Shown here one piece after another: positions 5,891 to 23,579 of a stretch of DNA of 64,000 nt; position 1 is the first letter of the stretch; every line of letters begins with the position of its first letter. The translations under genes were made by a program, and so were the position numbers. The stretch comes from Myxococcota bacterium (GTDB taxonomy: Bacteria; Myxococcota_A; SURF-8). The notes beneath the pieces were generated by a model, which did not search any database, was not told where the DNA came from, and saw nothing but the letters and a program-made list of their open reading frames with translations. The stretch is from positions 1,248,001 to 1,312,000 of the forward strand of contig CAXXQS010000002.1 in assembly GCA_963674735.2 (NCBI GenBank), given 5' to 3'.

Positions 5891-6805
5891 ATGGAACGTA
5901 TCGACGTCAAATGCGGATTCAATTGCAATAACAAATGCTTCTTCTGCGTGCAGGGCGATAAGCGCTATCACTACGCCGACAAAAGCACCGACGAAGTCAA
6001 AAAAGTCCTCGACGACGGCCGCAAGGACTCGGACGCGCTGGTTTTCACCGGCGGCGAAGTGACCATCCGCAAAGACTTCCCCGAATTGGTGGCGCATGCC
6101 AAATCGTTGGGATTCCGGGTGATTCAGGTGCAGACCAACGGTCGCCTGTTCGCCTCGAAGGCCTTTTGCGAAAAGATCATCGCAGCCGGAGCGACCGAAT
6201 TTTCTCCGGCTATTCACGGACATACGTCCGAATTGCACGATTTCCTCACCCATGCGCCGGGTGCGTTCAAGCAGACCGTGCACGGGATCCAGAATCTCAA
6301 GGCGCTGGGACAGACCATCGTCATGAATTCGGTGATAACGCGTCCCAACTATCGCAATCTGCCCGATATGGCGCGCCTGTTCTCGGCGCTCAAGGTCGAC
6401 CAATTCCAGTTCGCCTTCGTGCATGCCCTGGGCAGCGCCGAAAAGCATTTCGAGATGATCGTACCGCGCAAGTCGCTGGTGGAGCCGTACGTCAAGCAGG
6501 CGCTGGCCATCGGCGTCAAAAACGGCTGCCGCGTCATGACCGAGGCGATTCCCTATTGCTTCATGAGCGGCTTCGAGGTCTTTGTGGCCGAACGTTACAT
6601 TCCGCGCACCAAGATTTTCGATGCCGACTGGGTGGTGGACGACTACACCGATTACCGCTGGAACGAGGGCAAGGCCAAGGGCGAGCCCTGCAAAACCTGC
6701 GCTTACCAAGATGAATGCGAGGGTCCCTGGCGGGAATACCCCGAACATTTCGGTTGGGATGAATTCAAACCGCGACCGGAAAAGACCGATGTCCCAAAAC
6801 CCTGA
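5891..6805 (+). CDS. Radical SAM protein, HxsC-like putative peptide maturase 1
   Basis: CNNKCFFC, FTGGEVT, QTNGR and HDFLT motifs; C-terminal PYC and CKTCAYQDEC auxiliary Cys motif. Confidence 0.85.
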   Translation: MERIDVKCGFNCNNKCFFCVQGDKRYHYADKSTDEVKKVLDDGRKDSDALVFTGGEVTIRKDFPELVAHAKSLGFRVIQVQTNGRLFASKAFCEKIIAAGATEFSPAIHGHTSELHDFLTHAPGAFKQTVHGIQNLKALGQTIVMNSVITRPNYRNLPDMARLFSALKVDQFQFAFVHALGSAEKHFEMIVPRKSLVEPYVKQALAIGVKNGCRVMTEAIPYCFMSGFEVFVAERYIPRTKIFDADWVVDDYTDYRWNEGKAKGEPCKTCAYQDECEGPWREYPEHFGWDEFKPRPEKTDVPKP

Positions 6806-8465
6806 CGAACAAAAGGGCGGTCTTTCCGATGACGTGCGCGACGTCCGCGAACAGGCGGTGCATGAATACCGCCACTGGGTGCGTACCACCTACGCCTGCA
6901 ATAATCGTTGTATTTTCTGCCTTGACGGCGATGTCAGCCGCGCGCGTCATTTGCCCAAGGCGGAAGTTTTCGCTGAGATCGAGCGGGGTTTCCAGCCCGG
7001 TGCGCGTCTGATCGTCTCGGGTGGGGAAGCCTCCATCCACCCGGATTTCATCGACTTTGTCGCCCATGGCAAGCGTGTCGGTTACGGCTGGATTCAAACC
7101 ATCACCAACGGCCGCATGTTCGCCTACGAACCCTTCACACGCAAAGCCGCCGATGCCGGATTGAACGAAGTCACCTTCTCGATGCACGGCCACACCTCGG
7201 AGATTCACGACACTTTGACGGGGATCAAAGGTGGTTTCGCCCAGGCGCTGCGCGGCATGCGCAACCTGCTGAAGGACGGCCGGGTGGTGATCAACGTGGA
7301 CTGCGTCATCAACGGCTTGAATTACAAACACTTGGACGACATCCTGCAGTTTTACATGAAGCTCGGTATCCACGAATTCGACCTCTTGCAGATCGTTCCC
7401 TTCGGGCGCGCCTGGTACGATGAAAATCGCGAGCGTCTGTTCTACGATGTCGAAGAAGCCTTCCCCTATCTCAACCGCGCCTTTCAACGGGCCTACAAGC
7501 CCGGCAATTACATCTGGACCAACCGGTTCCCGGTGGCCTACCTCGAAGGCATCGAGGATCTCATTCAGGATCCGCACAAGCTGTTTGACGAGATGCGCGG
7601 ACGGCGCGACGAGTTCGAGCATTTCGTCGATAGCGGTCAAAAGCTGCGCTGTTTCGGCGAGCGTTGTCGCTACTGCTTCCTGCAGGACTATTGCGATACC
7701 CTGCACCGTTTGCACGATCGTTTAAGCGTGGGTGGATTTGCGCGGGTGGCGGTGGATCTCGTCGAAAATGACAATCTCATCGCTCCCTCCGCCCTCAAAG
7801 CGCAGATCGAGAAAAGCGGAATCCGCCGTTTGCGTTTGTCGGCGCGAGACGCGACGCAGGCGCGTGAGTGGATGTCGCGCATGGATGGCTTTCTGCCGGA
7901 TGAAATCGAATTGTCTCTCGACGATTGGACGGCTTTCCTCGACGAAGTCACGAAGCGTCCGCCGGTGGAAACCTGGCCGGGCCTGCGGCGGCTGGTGGTC
8001 ATGACGCCGGATGCGCTCGATGCGCTATCGGCGCTCGATATCGAATTGGAAATACCGGTGTTGACCGATCTGATGGAGACGCTCAACGGACGCAAACACG
8101 AATTGGCCGAACGCGGACGAGTGTGGTTGCGCTGGCCGACGGTGGAAACACTGAACGAGGCGCGTGCGCAAGTCCCCGATCCGGCGGCGTTTCTGGCCGA
8201 TTGGCAGGATGTGCCGGTGAAGGTCTTGGGTGTGCCGCTCTGTCTGCATCCCGGCGCGGAAACCGATCCGCCCACTTTGCGTCTATCAAGTCTCGACGTC
8301 ACGGGGCGTCTCGATATGCCTTCTTTCACCCGCGATTACATTCGTTTCGACTACGAAGCCAAATCCAACCGTTGTCGCAACTGCGCGCAGACGGCCGCCT
8401 GTCGCGGTCTACATCTCAACACCCTGCGTGTGCACGGCTTCAAGACGTTGAGACCGTTCGAGTAA
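6789..8465 (+). CDS. Radical SAM protein with long C-terminal extension, putative peptide maturase 2
   Basis: CNNRCIFC, SGGEAS and TNGRM motifs; two further Cys clusters (CRYCFLQDYC; PLC...CRNCAQTAAC); ATG 6789 overlaps the end of the upstream gene. Confidence 0.85.
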   Translation: MSQNPDEQKGGLSDDVRDVREQAVHEYRHWVRTTYACNNRCIFCLDGDVSRARHLPKAEVFAEIERGFQPGARLIVSGGEASIHPDFIDFVAHGKRVGYGWIQTITNGRMFAYEPFTRKAADAGLNEVTFSMHGHTSEIHDTLTGIKGGFAQALRGMRNLLKDGRVVINVDCVINGLNYKHLDDILQFYMKLGIHEFDLLQIVPFGRAWYDENRERLFYDVEEAFPYLNRAFQRAYKPGNYIWTNRFPVAYLEGIEDLIQDPHKLFDEMRGRRDEFEHFVDSGQKLRCFGERCRYCFLQDYCDTLHRLHDRLSVGGFARVAVDLVENDNLIAPSALKAQIEKSGIRRLRLSARDATQAREWMSRMDGFLPDEIELSLDDWTAFLDEVTKRPPVETWPGLRRLVVMTPDALDALSALDIELEIPVLTDLMETLNGRKHELAERGRVWLRWPTVETLNEARAQVPDPAAFLADWQDVPVKVLGVPLCLHPGAETDPPTLRLSSLDVTGRLDMPSFTRDYIRFDYEAKSNRCRNCAQTAACRGLHLNTLRVHGFKTLRPFE

Positions 8466-18514: not shown

Positions 18515-21136
18515 TTACGGCAATCCGGGTGCGGTGTAGCCGTTGTTGTCCGTATCGATGAAAATCGGGTTGAGGATGCTCAAGACCGGTTGTCCGGGCG
18601 AAACCGGACCGAGGTCTTTTTCGGGTGCGCCCGCCAAAACGGCCACCCAGCTATCTCCGTCGAGAGCCGGCAAGGTGTGGGTGGCGCTGTAGCGTTCCGT
18701 CTCGGTTCCCGAAACGGCTTCCTCGACCACCGTTTGCCCGTTGACGACGATACGAATCCAGTCCACCGGCATCCATGACGGGGCCTGTACGTGTACGGCA
18801 ACCTCGTAGGGGCCATCGCCGGTCACGGTTCCGCCCACGCCGACTCCATTGATTTCAGCGGTGACGAAGGGACCGGAGGCCGCCATGACTTGCAGGCTTT
18901 TGACGGCCGTGATGAGTTCGTTGTTGCTGACGGCGTTGGGGTCGTCCTTGCCGACGTAAACAAAGCTGCGGCCATCGCCGGGATTGTTCTCGGTGTGCGA
19001 GTCGGATACCGCTGTTCCGGCTACGTGAATGCCCTGGTTGAGCAGGCTGTACCAGTCGGGCAGAACTTTGCTGAGGGACGTGCTCACAGCTCCCGAGTTG
19101 ATGAGTTCCACCATGTCGAAATCTTCGGAGAACACACCGTCTTCAAGGCCCGCGACCCCGACGGCGGGATCGTAGTCGATGACATCGAAATAGCCTTGCG
19201 AGCCGCGCGGATGATTGATCTGGACGAGCTGGCTATCGAAGGTATCGTGCAACTCGGTCCAGATTTCCGGCATGCTCATCGGTCCCAGGAAATGATCGTC
19301 CTCGGCGTCATAGCCTTTGTACCAGTAGACGCCGAAATAGTCGGGTCGTTCGGGTTGTTTGGTGAGAATGATCCCATTGGTGTGCGCCCAGGGAGGCGAA
19401 ACTTCGTCACCGACGAGCACACGCAGATAGTCGCGCAAGCCCAGCGGATCGACCAGCGGATCGAGATTGCTGATGTGATCGTGGTCGGTGATGGGCGTCA
19501 ATTCCAAGCCGACGGCCGCCAGTTGGGTGACCCGTTCTTCGATCGGGACGACGGCGTCGATGGATAGCTCCGTATGCATGTGGAAGTCGCTGGCGATCCA
19601 GCCCGTACTATCGACCACGCGGGTCAGATCTCCCGTGAAATCGATTGTTTGTTTCGCGGCTAACGTGATGGATTTCTGAACGATGTCGTATTCGTAACCG
19701 CGCGAAGCGGTGAGAGTGTAGTCGCCGGGTTCGAGCAGGAAAGTTCCCTGGCCATCGGTACTGAAGACGCGTTTGATGATGGCCGCGCCGGAGGCTGCGT
19801 CGGTGCCCGCTTGTACGCTGATGCGGCAAGGCAAACCATCGTGCGAACTACCATCGAAGTGCTCGCCGCCGATGGTAAAGGTGATGCGTCCGGTGGCGGG
19901 CAGCGCGATTTCGGCTTGCACGGGTTCGTCGCCCACGGTGACGGGGCCCACCGGCTCTCCTTGCGGACGACCGTTTTGACGCGTGATAACCGTGTAATTT
20001 CCGAGGGGTAGATTGAACGCCAGCGGTGCATCGCCGATCCGGGCGGTTGTGACCGGAATGTCTTCGTCGTCGAGAATCTCCACTTGAGCGGGCTGACCGG
20101 CGTCTTGTGGGTCGTCCAGGCTGGTCGTCACCGTGAGCGTGGTTGTCGCGTCGCCGGTGATGGCCGCGCGCTCTGCATGCACGGCCTCGAGGTTGGGGCC
20201 CACCGAGAAATAGCGGGTGAAGCTGCCGGATTGTCCCGGTTTTATGTCGACCCGAGTGCCGACGATGGGCAGAATGTCGGCCTGGTCGAGAGGAACATTC
20301 AGCAGGCCTTCCGCCGGATAATAGCCGTAGGCGATGCCGTCTCCCACTGCGAACTGGGCCGGGAAATCGCCCAGAGCAGCCAGACCTTTAAGCCCCCAGC
20401 CCAAGCCGGGTGTCAGAATATCGAGGCGGTTGCTCCAAACGACAGCGTCGCCCAGATCCACTTCCTGGCGGCTGTCGGAAGCGACCGTGGTGGTGATTTC
20501 CAAGCTGCGGCTTTCGGGGAGCAGGCGGTAATCCAGGGTGACCGCGAGGCCGAGAGACTGAAAGGGGATCGCCATGTCGACGATGGGGATTCCATAGTCC
20601 CGCCCGGTCACGCGCAGATGGGCGACCGTCCCCGCCGAGCCGTCGTCGATGACTTCGAAGGTTTCGGGGATGAAGCCGCGCAGGATGGCCGTAATGATAC
20701 TGACTTCGTCGAGGAGATCTTCGCCTTGTTCGTCGCCGTCCAACCAGACCGCATCGATGAGCGTGCCGCCCATGGGCACCCAGGAACGGGTTTTCCCGGT
20801 TCCCTGTATGACAAACAGAGCCCGTTCGTTCGCGATCAGGTAGTCGCCGGCCTGTACACCCGCCGAGGGGCCGTCCAGAACGGCGCTTCCGTCGCTCAGC
20901 AACTCAACCCGAAGTCCGGTCAGCGGAGGTTCATCGCCGTCGGGTTCATCGCCATCGGGCTCGTCGCCATCAGGCTCATCACCGTCGGGCTCATCACCGT
21001 CGGGAGTATCACCATCCGGTGTGTCGCCATCGGTGGGGTCACCGGTATCGCTGTCGGAACCTCCGCAGTTGACGGCAAAAAACATCAGCATGCTCAAAAC
21101 AACCAACATGACGCCATTTAAACAAATCCGACGCAT
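18515..21136 (-). CDS. Lipoprotein with PHP-like (CehA/McbA-type) metallohydrolase domain
   Basis: Lipobox AVNC; DGD[TE]P repeats; SRGYEY, DFHMH, TDHDH, NHP and SDSH metal-ligand motifs. Confidence 0.82.
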   Translation of the reverse strand: MRRICLNGVMLVVLSMLMFFAVNCGGSDSDTGDPTDGDTPDGDTPDGDEPDGDEPDGDEPDGDEPDGDEPPLTGLRVELLSDGSAVLDGPSAGVQAGDYLIANERALFVIQGTGKTRSWVPMGGTLIDAVWLDGDEQGEDLLDEVSIITAILRGFIPETFEVIDDGSAGTVAHLRVTGRDYGIPIVDMAIPFQSLGLAVTLDYRLLPESRSLEITTTVASDSRQEVDLGDAVVWSNRLDILTPGLGWGLKGLAALGDFPAQFAVGDGIAYGYYPAEGLLNVPLDQADILPIVGTRVDIKPGQSGSFTRYFSVGPNLEAVHAERAAITGDATTTLTVTTSLDDPQDAGQPAQVEILDDEDIPVTTARIGDAPLAFNLPLGNYTVITRQNGRPQGEPVGPVTVGDEPVQAEIALPATGRITFTIGGEHFDGSSHDGLPCRISVQAGTDAASGAAIIKRVFSTDGQGTFLLEPGDYTLTASRGYEYDIVQKSITLAAKQTIDFTGDLTRVVDSTGWIASDFHMHTELSIDAVVPIEERVTQLAAVGLELTPITDHDHISNLDPLVDPLGLRDYLRVLVGDEVSPPWAHTNGIILTKQPERPDYFGVYWYKGYDAEDDHFLGPMSMPEIWTELHDTFDSQLVQINHPRGSQGYFDVIDYDPAVGVAGLEDGVFSEDFDMVELINSGAVSTSLSKVLPDWYSLLNQGIHVAGTAVSDSHTENNPGDGRSFVYVGKDDPNAVSNNELITAVKSLQVMAASGPFVTAEINGVGVGGTVTGDGPYEVAVHVQAPSWMPVDWIRIVVNGQTVVEEAVSGTETERYSATHTLPALDGDSWVAVLAGAPEKDLGPVSPGQPVLSILNPIFIDTDNNGYTAPGLP
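20927..21031 (-). repeat. Intragenic 15-bp tandem repeat x7 encoding (DGDTP)2(DGDEP)5
   Basis: Read directly; synonymous variation between units. Confidence 0.9.
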
Positions 21137-21959: not shown

Positions 21960-22829
21960 TCAGTGCAATTGAGGTTCCTGGTCGTCGGAGTCGTCGAACC
22001 AAGGGGTGTTTTCGGGACTGCTGGGGGCTCGGTCGGAAGCGGTGAGTGAGCTTGGCTCGGTCGGATTTTGGCTCTTCGCTTCCGGGGTTTCGTTTGTTTC
22101 GGATTCCCCGCGGCGCACTGCCATGATTTGTTCGAGAAATCCGAGCGAAAAGCGCCGTGACTTATACAAGCTGCGCAAATCGGGAAGGGACAGCGAAGGC
22201 AGAATGAGCATGACCAGCCGGGGAGGCGTATCGGGGTTGTTGAGCAGAGCGGTTTTCACCCGATAGCGGGCAAACCACTTGGGATGTTCCACCACCTGGC
22301 GTAGGGCTTCCGGGTGGTTGGGACGTCTGGCGCATATTTTGATGACGTGTTCTTCTTTAAGCTGCGGATGACGCAGCAGGTTTTTAATGACGGCCGGATC
22401 GGGGTCGACCAGGAGTTTTTCGAGCAGAAGCGGCGAAGCTTTGCGGGCATGCCACTTACGTTCGCCGAGTGTCATATCCTGCAAGTCCTGATGGGCCTGC
22501 AGGTTTTTCGGTTTCGGCTTGCGAATGGGCAGGGGGGCCAGCCATTCCGTGGCCAGCAGCAGACCTTGGCGGTCGGCGATATCGAAAATCGTACTCAGGC
22601 GACGTCCGAAGCATTCGCGAACGATACTGAAATCCGTCATATCTCGAAGTAGAGCCAGGCTGTTACGATTTTTCCGAATGGCTTGGCGATAAAGTTCGTC
22701 GAATAAATGGGCGACTTCTTCATCGCTGAAACGGGAAAACTCGTGGGCGGTGCGCCGTGCACGGAAGCTCGCTTCTTTGAGGGGCCTTACGCGTTCGGCG
22801 ATGGCCCGGATGATGTCATCATAGTCCAT
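21960..22829 (-). CDS. Hypothetical helical-repeat protein (LRV/HEAT-like)
   Basis: LTLGERK-like segment, DPDPAVIKNLLRHP and RVKTALLNNPDTP. Confidence 0.6.
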   Translation of the reverse strand: MDYDDIIRAIAERVRPLKEASFRARRTAHEFSRFSDEEVAHLFDELYRQAIRKNRNSLALLRDMTDFSIVRECFGRRLSTIFDIADRQGLLLATEWLAPLPIRKPKPKNLQAHQDLQDMTLGERKWHARKASPLLLEKLLVDPDPAVIKNLLRHPQLKEEHVIKICARRPNHPEALRQVVEHPKWFARYRVKTALLNNPDTPPRLVMLILPSLSLPDLRSLYKSRRFSLGFLEQIMAVRRGESETNETPEAKSQNPTEPSSLTASDRAPSSPENTPWFDDSDDQEPQLH

Positions 22830-22870: not shown

Positions 22871-22909
22871 AAAAAAAACGCCGCATGACCGGAGATCCGG
22901 TTGGCGGCG
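22871..22909 (-). terminator. Intrinsic terminator of the His-Xaa-Ser peptide gene
   Basis: Minus strand CGCCGC-CA-ACCGGA-TC-TCCGGT-CAT-GCGGCG followed by T8, about 30 nt after the stop. Confidence 0.8.
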
Positions 22910-22938
22910 GAAGCATGGCCGTTTGATCGAAACGCTGT

Positions 22939-23352
22939 TTACCAACTCCCGTGGGAACCATGTGAGCCGTGGGAGCCATGCGAGCCGTGGGAGGCGTGGG
23001 AGCCATGGGAGCCGTGGGAGCCGTGGGAACCATGAGAACCGTGGGAGCCATGCGAGCCATGCGAGCCATGCGAGGCATGCGAACCGTGCGAGGCATGTCC
23101 GGCATGCAACGACTGTCCCTCGGCCATGGCGGCTTGAATGTCCGGCGAATGGCCGTCCAGATAGTCGGCTGCGTCGTGATGGTCCGGTCCGATGTTGATC
23201 CCTTCTTTTTCAGCTGCTTCGAGCGACTGTCCCAGGAGAAGCAAAGTTGTGGATGCCGTGAGGGCTTGCTTCTTGGTGATTTTGCCTTCTTCTCCCGTGA
23301 GGAACTGGCCGACCTTTTTTTGAATTTTAGGGAGCTTGCGTTTCGCACTCAT
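22939..23352 (-). CDS. His-Xaa-Ser repeat peptide (HxsA-like precursor), 137 aa
   Basis: AAGGAG RBS before ATG 23352; basic leader KLPKIQKKVGQFLTGEEGKITKK; C-terminal HAG + 17 x H[GA]S + W. Confidence 0.88.
   Translation of the reverse strand: MSAKRKLPKIQKKVGQFLTGEEGKITKKQALTASTTLLLLGQSLEAAEKEGINIGPDHHDAADYLDGHSPDIQAAMAEGQSLHAGHASHGSHASHGSHGSHGSHGSHGSHGSHGSHGSHASHGSHGSHGSHGSHGSW
22945..23106 (-). repeat. 9-bp coding tandem repeat x18 (14 HGS, 3 HAS, 1 HAG)
   Basis: Counted from the DNA; third codon positions vary. Confidence 0.95.
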
Positions 23353-23486
23353 CAGCGTCTCCTTTGTGGTCGCAGCGCGAGTAAACCAACCCGCTTCCGA
23401 CGGCCCGGTCGGCATCAATCGATGCAGATACACTCCCCTTGACGCCAGCCTCTCCATCAGACATACGTCAAGTCAAGGTAAGATCA

Positions 23487-23516
23487 ATTGTAACAGACCC
23501 ATTTGCAGTCTGTCAA
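23487..23516 (-). promoter_or_regulatory. Sigma70 promoter of the His-Xaa-Ser peptide gene
   Basis: Minus strand TTGACA-N18-TACAAT with TGn extension; -35 overlaps the palindrome GTCAAGCTTGAC. Confidence 0.6.
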
Positions 23517-23579
23517 GCTTGACGTGCATGTATGTCAGTCCTAACAAATGTCGGGCAAAAATCGTGGATCTTTTTGAAA

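Follow-up and report, generated by a model that had tools for sequence, protein, structure and literature searches.

What does a His-Xaa-Ser repeat gene encode when it stands apart from any enzyme likely to modify its product? The question is raised by a 137-aa open reading frame in a 64,000-nucleotide stretch of an uncultured Myxococcota genome (hereafter the window; C2:1248001–1312000 of a 5.26-Mb assembly in three contigs, which we label G000). The original prediction, made from the letters of the sequence, described a stand-alone His-Xaa-Ser precursor with an exceptionally long array, highly expressed and uncoupled from its maturases. Our analysis confirms the observation and partly supports the interpretation. 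The best explanation of the locus is that it carries an orphan HxsA4 gene, putatively transcribed singly, which is one of two copies in this genome. We put at roughly 75% the probability that its product is an HxsA4 precursor undergoing Hxs-type maturation by enzymes encoded at remote loci, following a maturation logic that is likely shared with the canonical HXS system. The gene, its parts, and the signals around it all lie on the minus strand:

22939–23352, minus strand: HxsA4-family coding sequence, 137 aa plus a TAA stop; 85.8 bits against NF038313; dN 0.02–0.19
23359–23364, minus strand: ribosome-binding site AAGGAG, 6 nt 5′ of the ATG, read from the sequence
23487–23516, minus strand: promoter-like site TTGACA-18 nt-TACAAT with TG before the −10 hexamer, 11/12, a consensus match only
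22871–22909, minus strand: intrinsic-terminator-like hairpin followed by U8, −30 kcal/mol, z −2.2
23218–23352, minus strand: leader, residues 1–45, net charge +7 over residues 1–30, with the motif FLxGEEGKITKK and a weakly hydrophobic helix
23107–23217, minus strand: acidic variable spacer, residues 46–82, net charge −7, 3 His, predicted to be disordered
22945–23106, minus strand: repeat core of HAG plus 17 in-register H-x-S triplets (14 HGS, 3 HAS)
22942–22944, minus strand: codon for the C-terminal Trp, invariant in 20/20 aligned sequences

The reading frame with its own ribosome-binding site is thus as originally described, and the chosen ATG agrees with the N-termini of the orthologues in our alignment, which supports this start. 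The near-consensus promoter could likewise be located, as a match to the consensus, in a region where scanning returned two such sites against 0.5 expected from shuffled sequences. The claim of a strong terminator holds for the hairpin itself, which folds with its U8 tract and was equalled in stability by 5 of 200 shuffles, but a consensus scanner did not call a terminator at 22871–22909. The upstream regions of four orphan or second HxsA4 copies align poorly (52% mean column identity), and no conserved promoter was found across them. A search of Rfam with the segment from the promoter-like site to the start codon gave nothing credible; the sole Rfam match, to a snoRNA model (E 0.16), lies on another stretch. 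The orphan stretch is present in three sequencing runs of one study, with no RNA runs among those listed, and the description of the gene as highly expressed had been drawn solely from these sequence signals.

The protein runs from the leader through the acidic spacer and the 17-triplet core to the final Trp, and both the basic character of the leader and the acidity of the spacer are borne out by their net charges. The basic N-terminus carries the motif FLTGEEGKITKK; in an alignment of 20 sequences, E22 of this leader motif is invariant, and conservation reaches 90% or more at F17, L18, E21, G23, and I25. The short hydrophobic stretch that had been noticed is present (ALTASTTLLLLGQSL) but weak by the Kyte–Doolittle measure, reaching 1.25 in a 15-residue window where 72 of 76 family members reach at least 1.6, which makes export uncertain. 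AlphaFold2, run on a 20-row alignment, modeled the protein with a mean pLDDT of 57, placing leader helices at residues 3–19 and 27–49 (pLDDT of about 71–84) and predicting the remainder, including the repeats, to be disordered. The core holds 18 His and neither Lys nor Arg.

Among the family models, only the NCBIfam entry NF038313, “His-Xaa-Ser repeat protein HxsA4”, is passed (85.8 bits, E 2.8e-24, cut-off 55). The HxsA3 model reaches 42.8 bits against a cut-off of 65, with the match confined to the leader, and HxsA2 (18.5 bits, cut-off 48) and canonical HxsA (TIGR03979; 15.5 bits, cut-off 121.65) fall well below. The HxsA-family scan thus bears out the assignment to His-Xaa-Ser repeat precursor-like proteins, and the gene is a member of a known family already defined in NCBIfam, not of a new class; given this fit, a new kind of system is not called for. 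It shares with HxsA4 the leader motif, the C-terminal H-x-S run, and the aromatic last residue, and it differs in lacking an adjoining maturase, in having its own promoter-like site and terminator-like hairpin, and in beginning its array with HAS in place of the usual HCS. A search of 5.8 billion proteins returned 237 relatives, almost all unnamed and one labeled HxsA4. The ESM Atlas, queried with residues 1–82, gave top scores of 0.82–0.83, under the level that counts, to unnamed Myxococcota and Elusimicrobiota clusters. PADLOC (2023) gave no match for the repeat protein, for HxsD, or for the two flanking genes, and only generic viperin-type radical SAM matches for the Hxs enzymes. Our literature search on histidine-rich, His-Xaa-Ser, and Hxs proteins found no paper naming HxsA4, and the names HxsA2, HxsA3, and HxsA4 are absent from the Nat Commun paper.

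Counted codon by codon, the core is HAG followed by 14 HGS and 3 HAS triplets and a closing Trp, exactly as first reported. The accompanying claim that the array is exceptionally long does not stand for this lineage: triplet number is 16 or 17 in 15 of 16 Myxococcota HxsA4 genes (12 in the remaining one), and all 16 end in Trp. Seventeen triplets is therefore usual here, and long only relative to the five repeats of canonical HxsA. Across a wider sample, at least 17 triplets occur in 15 of the best-scoring 120 of the 237 homologues, with a maximum of 29 and a median of 7; the median and the 15 of 120 are rough figures because long arrays raise the score, and the 120 include a few collagen-like proteins outside the HxsA4 family. 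Public loci carry arrays of up to 49 triplets, the longest that we observed being a run at L070:10002–10442 between HxsB and a second radical SAM gene. One relative (G002, L043:1036–1973) has two tandem HxsA4 genes about 150 bp apart with 16 triplets each.

Tandem Repeats Finder picks up a repeat of period 9 bp at 22952–23097 (16.2 copies, 80% matches), and the 17 units differ from one another at 302 bases in pairwise comparison, of which 228 concern the third codon position and 32 reflect serine codons switching between TCN and AGT. Synonymous changes thus make up 260 of the 302 differences, and the remaining 42 are Gly/Ala changes. This bias had been taken to indicate selection on the peptide, a reading that comparison with orthologues and the paralogue upholds. 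Values of dN are 0.11–0.19 in the leader and mostly 0.02–0.08 in the repeats, and dS exceeds 1 or is not computable; a dN of 0.02–0.19 with saturated synonymous sites indicates that the peptide is under purifying selection. Mean unit-to-unit identity inside the arrays is 0.70–0.82 in 15 of the 16 Myxococcota genes because their codons are scrambled. One position sets the orphan apart: the first triplet is HCS in 14 of the 16 genes and HAS in the orphan (23089–23097) and in the second copy of G003. Both of these genomes also retain a Cys-bearing copy, and the function of the orphan may have diverged from that of the copy in the cluster.

If the orphan product is modified, the enzymes would have to be sought elsewhere in the genome. 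No HxsB-type maturase adjoins the gene, and the nearest radical SAM genes, which are not HxsB, lie 14.5 kb away. The description of the gene as stand-alone is to this extent accurate, but uncoupling from maturases does not extend to the genome, which encodes HxsB, HxsD, and a second HxsA4 elsewhere. HxsB (TIGR03978) is found at C1:2646762–2648162 (554 bits, cut-off 370). The second HxsA4 copy, at C1:2648218–2648622 (81.5 bits), has its start 13 nt past HxsB and overlaps at its stop codon with the beginning of a 322-aa radical SAM gene, for which no curated family fits (top match PapB, 67 bits). At a third locus, HxsD occupies C1:4868–5518 (66.8–68.6 bits, cut-off 50), and one gene away lies an HxsC-like radical SAM gene (about 113 bits against the HxsC cut-off of 267.9); in this locus (L024:2788–5518 of our extracted loci), far from HxsB, the 216-aa HxsD and the 332-aa HxsC-like enzyme are accompanied by an unknown ORF of 314 aa. 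Searching the whole genome returned no gene at the cut-off for HxsC (top 110.7–113.3 bits against 267.9) or for HxsC4 (top 151.7–176 bits against 500). A six-frame scan of the genome found exactly two runs of at least three H-x-S triplets, those of the two HxsA4 copies, each with 17 triplets. The two proteins are 68% identical, and their repeats differ at scattered third codon positions, indicating neither recent duplication nor gene conversion.

The surroundings of HxsB are themselves conserved. Directly upstream (C1:2641561–2646438; L023:1561–6438) is a gene for a 1625-aa Cys-rich protein with Ig-like ASH/HYDIN domains and MopE-type putative metal-binding motifs (83.8 bits), which keeps this position in G001, G003, G004, and G006 at 34–46% identity. 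Downstream of the HxsB cluster (L023:9779–12774) are two predicted proteins with long DPDGDD repeats, one of which resembles LIC13354-family exoprotein repeats at 53.5 bits, below the cut-off of 130.

We compared this arrangement across 41 related genomes. HxsA4 exceeds its cut-off in 16 of them, and HxsB (E of at most 1e-40) is present in all 16, counting a partial HxsB at a contig end in G002 that scores 305 bits, below the cut-off of 370; in the 22 genomes without HxsB, HxsA4 is never found above its cut-off. As these genomes are related and not independent, such co-occurrence counts overstate the support. Within the order, sampled by 10 species genomes, HxsB is present in 10/10 and HxsA4 in 9/10, the one genome without HxsA4 being 79% complete. 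Judged by coordinates and leaving G002 out of the tally, an HxsA4 gene and HxsB are no more than a few hundred bases apart in G000, G003, G004, G015, G021, G023, and G036, and the sole HxsA4 lies on another contig or megabases away in G001, G006–G009, G017, G028, and G038. Three of these eight remote-copy genomes were inspected directly. In G001 and G008, HxsB is directly followed by the second radical SAM gene with no intervening repeat gene, and in G006 no H-x-S run is found within 6 kb of HxsB, the sole HxsA4 being elsewhere. The remote HxsA4 is thus the only candidate substrate in G001, G006, and G008, which is the strongest argument for maturation in trans, and maturation in trans is accordingly the best reading. 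Separation of the precursor from its probable maturases is, by gene position, a common arrangement in this lineage.

The orphan adjoins the same gene in G000, G001, and G004. The two members of the HxsD/HxsC-like pair are neighbors in G001, G004, and G006 and lie separately in G003 and G008. A tree of the leaders of the 16 Myxococcota genes leaves 9 of 13 inner branches unsupported and does not separate orphan from cluster copies, and the probable orthology of the orphan copies rests on shared neighbors only. That shared neighbor, directly downstream of the orphan (21960–22829, minus strand), encodes a 289-aa protein without a match in Pfam, NCBIfam, or PADLOC; it sits beside the orphan in G001 and G004 (48–56% identity) and at other places in G002, G003, and G008. 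A CehA/McbA metallohydrolase domain (129 bits, cut-off 80) is present in an 873-aa protein encoded farther along the window (18515–21136, minus strand).

In loci from outside the order, the genes are typically arranged as HxsD–HxsB–repeat gene–second radical SAM gene. Among the 30 public loci whose triplet run numbers 10 or more, HxsB is found in 14, mostly within 60–350 bp, and a homologue of the second radical SAM gene is nearby in 10, within about 110 bp; some Hxs-type partner occurs in 19, and none in 11. Of those 11 partnerless loci, 7 end at a contig edge within about 1.5 kb; the other 4 have 5 kb or more of flanking sequence on either side, and every one of them comes from a Myxococcota record. 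In one Patescibacteria locus (L074), the HxsB relative contains 11 stops under table 11, which may reflect a recoded stop codon; a Gracilibacteria sequence (L094) was assumed to share this trait and was excluded from the alignment.

Several other explanations of the gene have to be weighed against remote Hxs-type maturation. That there is no real gene at all, only a low-complexity repeat produced by slippage, might be suggested by the 9-bp tandem array and by the long ORFs that overlap it in other frames. Orthologues in 9/10 genomes of the order, dN far below dS, units with an identity of only 0.70–0.82 and scrambled codons in 15 of 16 genes, and the presence of a ribosome-binding site, a terminator-like hairpin, and a family-model match bring its probability close to nil, and the conservation data already contradict it. 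A short collagen-like (Gly-Ser-His)n triple-helix protein is also highly improbable. The Pfam Collagen model (PF01391) scores 26.7 bits, just below the 27.2 threshold, and there are weak matches to the Scl and Lcl collagen-like adhesins; the same score is nevertheless sub-threshold, and the repeat region is predicted to be disordered. Ala takes the Gly position in 3 of the 17 units, and relatives have Ser, Ala, Cys, Val, or Thr there. With a varying Gly between fixed His and Ser, the array inverts the rule for collagen, and a collagen reading fails for this reason.

Two further alternatives accept the gene and question its maturation. The product could be an unmodified His-rich protein for binding or storing Ni, Zn, or Cu that merely resembles Hxs substrates, as its 18 core His, its acidic spacer, and the lack of an adjoining maturase would allow, and the MopE-type motifs upstream of HxsB hint at a metal theme. 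The near-invariance of His and Ser around a variable middle residue is, however, a pattern that simple metal binding does not need, the conserved leader is common to genes sited between radical SAM genes, and the co-occurrence with HxsB (16/16, against 0/22 without it) points the same way, such that we regard this as distinctly improbable. Alternatively, maturation could be carried out not by the distant HxsB locus but by two adjacent radical SAM genes within the window, at 5891–8465, which the original prediction had named as partners. Both find their best family in HxsC4 (176 and 100.8 bits), with HxsC as the next-best model, and the first is the best HxsC4-like match of the genome (151.7 bits). 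These scores nonetheless fall far short of 500, the HxsC4 cut-off, and values of 117–136 bits are reached by several further radical SAM genes of the genome. The pair also sits in a polysaccharide cluster, next to a UDP-GlcNAc 2-epimerase, a PMT-type glycosyltransferase, and a polysaccharide transporter, with SMC and FtsY intervening between it and the repeat gene. Orthologues of the first gene (304 aa, 71–80% identity) are remote from HxsA4 in 5/5 relatives, being megabases away or on another contig, and the proposed partnership is accordingly very unlikely. The first gene is itself a conserved core gene across the order.

Returning to HxsA4 as a remotely matured precursor, the closest experimental reference is the canonical HXS system. 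[quoted passage not shown] The source genome resembles this in having HxsB and HxsD above their cut-offs and a substrate with H-x-S repeats. It differs in that the orphan lacks a peptidoglycan-binding domain (the only Pfam hit being the sub-threshold Collagen match), has an acidic spacer, and bears 17 mostly HGS triplets without basic residues, as opposed to the five basic-rich repeats of canonical HxsA (PMC13128918). Its genes are spread over three loci and not one operon, no gene reaches the HxsC cut-off, and almost all genomes of one Myxococcota order have the system. A closer parallel is offered by HxsD–HxsB–HxsA4–radical SAM cassettes in other uncultured bacteria and archaea (L069, L070, L103, L106, and L110), which have homologous HxsB, HxsD, and second radical SAM enzymes, with the repeat gene between HxsB and the latter. 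In those cassettes the genes are together, whereas in the source genome, as in several of its Myxococcota relatives, the repeat gene lies elsewhere, having either moved out of the cassette or arisen by duplication away from it. By analogy only, bufferins, characterized in PMC11626156 as exported ribosomal peptide metallophores, are likewise ribosomally made, enzyme-modified peptides for metal handling; they are set apart by other enzymes, residues, and chemistry, with no sequence relation implied.

On these grounds, we propose that the leader would guide the orphan protein to HxsB, the radical SAM/SPASM maturase whose gene is on contig C1. This maturase probably works with the adjoining radical SAM enzyme and with the HxsD/HxsC-like pair of the third locus, and these enzymes would covalently modify His and/or Ser of the repeats. 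If canonical HxsA is a guide, cleavage at the N-terminus and export may follow. A predicted complex of HxsB (24-row alignment) with leader residues 1–60 (20 rows), run without controls, gave a score of 0.00 and no verdict, which weighs neither way on binding.

What the mature product might do is a more tentative matter. A housekeeping role outside the cytoplasm, for example in metal handling, is possible, and we lean toward it because the system has scattered genes, occurs in almost all genomes of the order, and is vertically inherited. The MopE-type neighbor of HxsB, combined with a His-rich and acidic product, tilts this slightly toward metal handling or an envelope role over mobile defense. 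A mobile antiphage role like that of canonical HXS is less likely than a housekeeping one, and rather unlikely in itself. A more sweeping proposition, which we consider doubtful as a whole, is that the Hxs-type system has become, in one Myxococcota order, a core, vertically inherited trait spread over at least three unlinked loci with its precursor outside the cassette, that the array is fixed at 16–17 triplets across families despite saturation of synonymous sites, to yield a product of fixed length or stoichiometry, and that its role is housekeeping and not mobile antiphage defense. If this were true, the product could be, for example, an envelope-spanning or metal-loading modified peptide.

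Before a 2026 paper, no role was known for HxS-repeat proteins, and the HxsA4 branch is untouched by experiment. The source genome and its relatives would offer a natural test of maturation in trans: cluster and orphan copies differ by a conserved Cys, and in some relatives the sole precursor is remote from HxsB. The tightly held number of 16–17 repeats may, in turn, provide a concrete handle on how the mature product acts.
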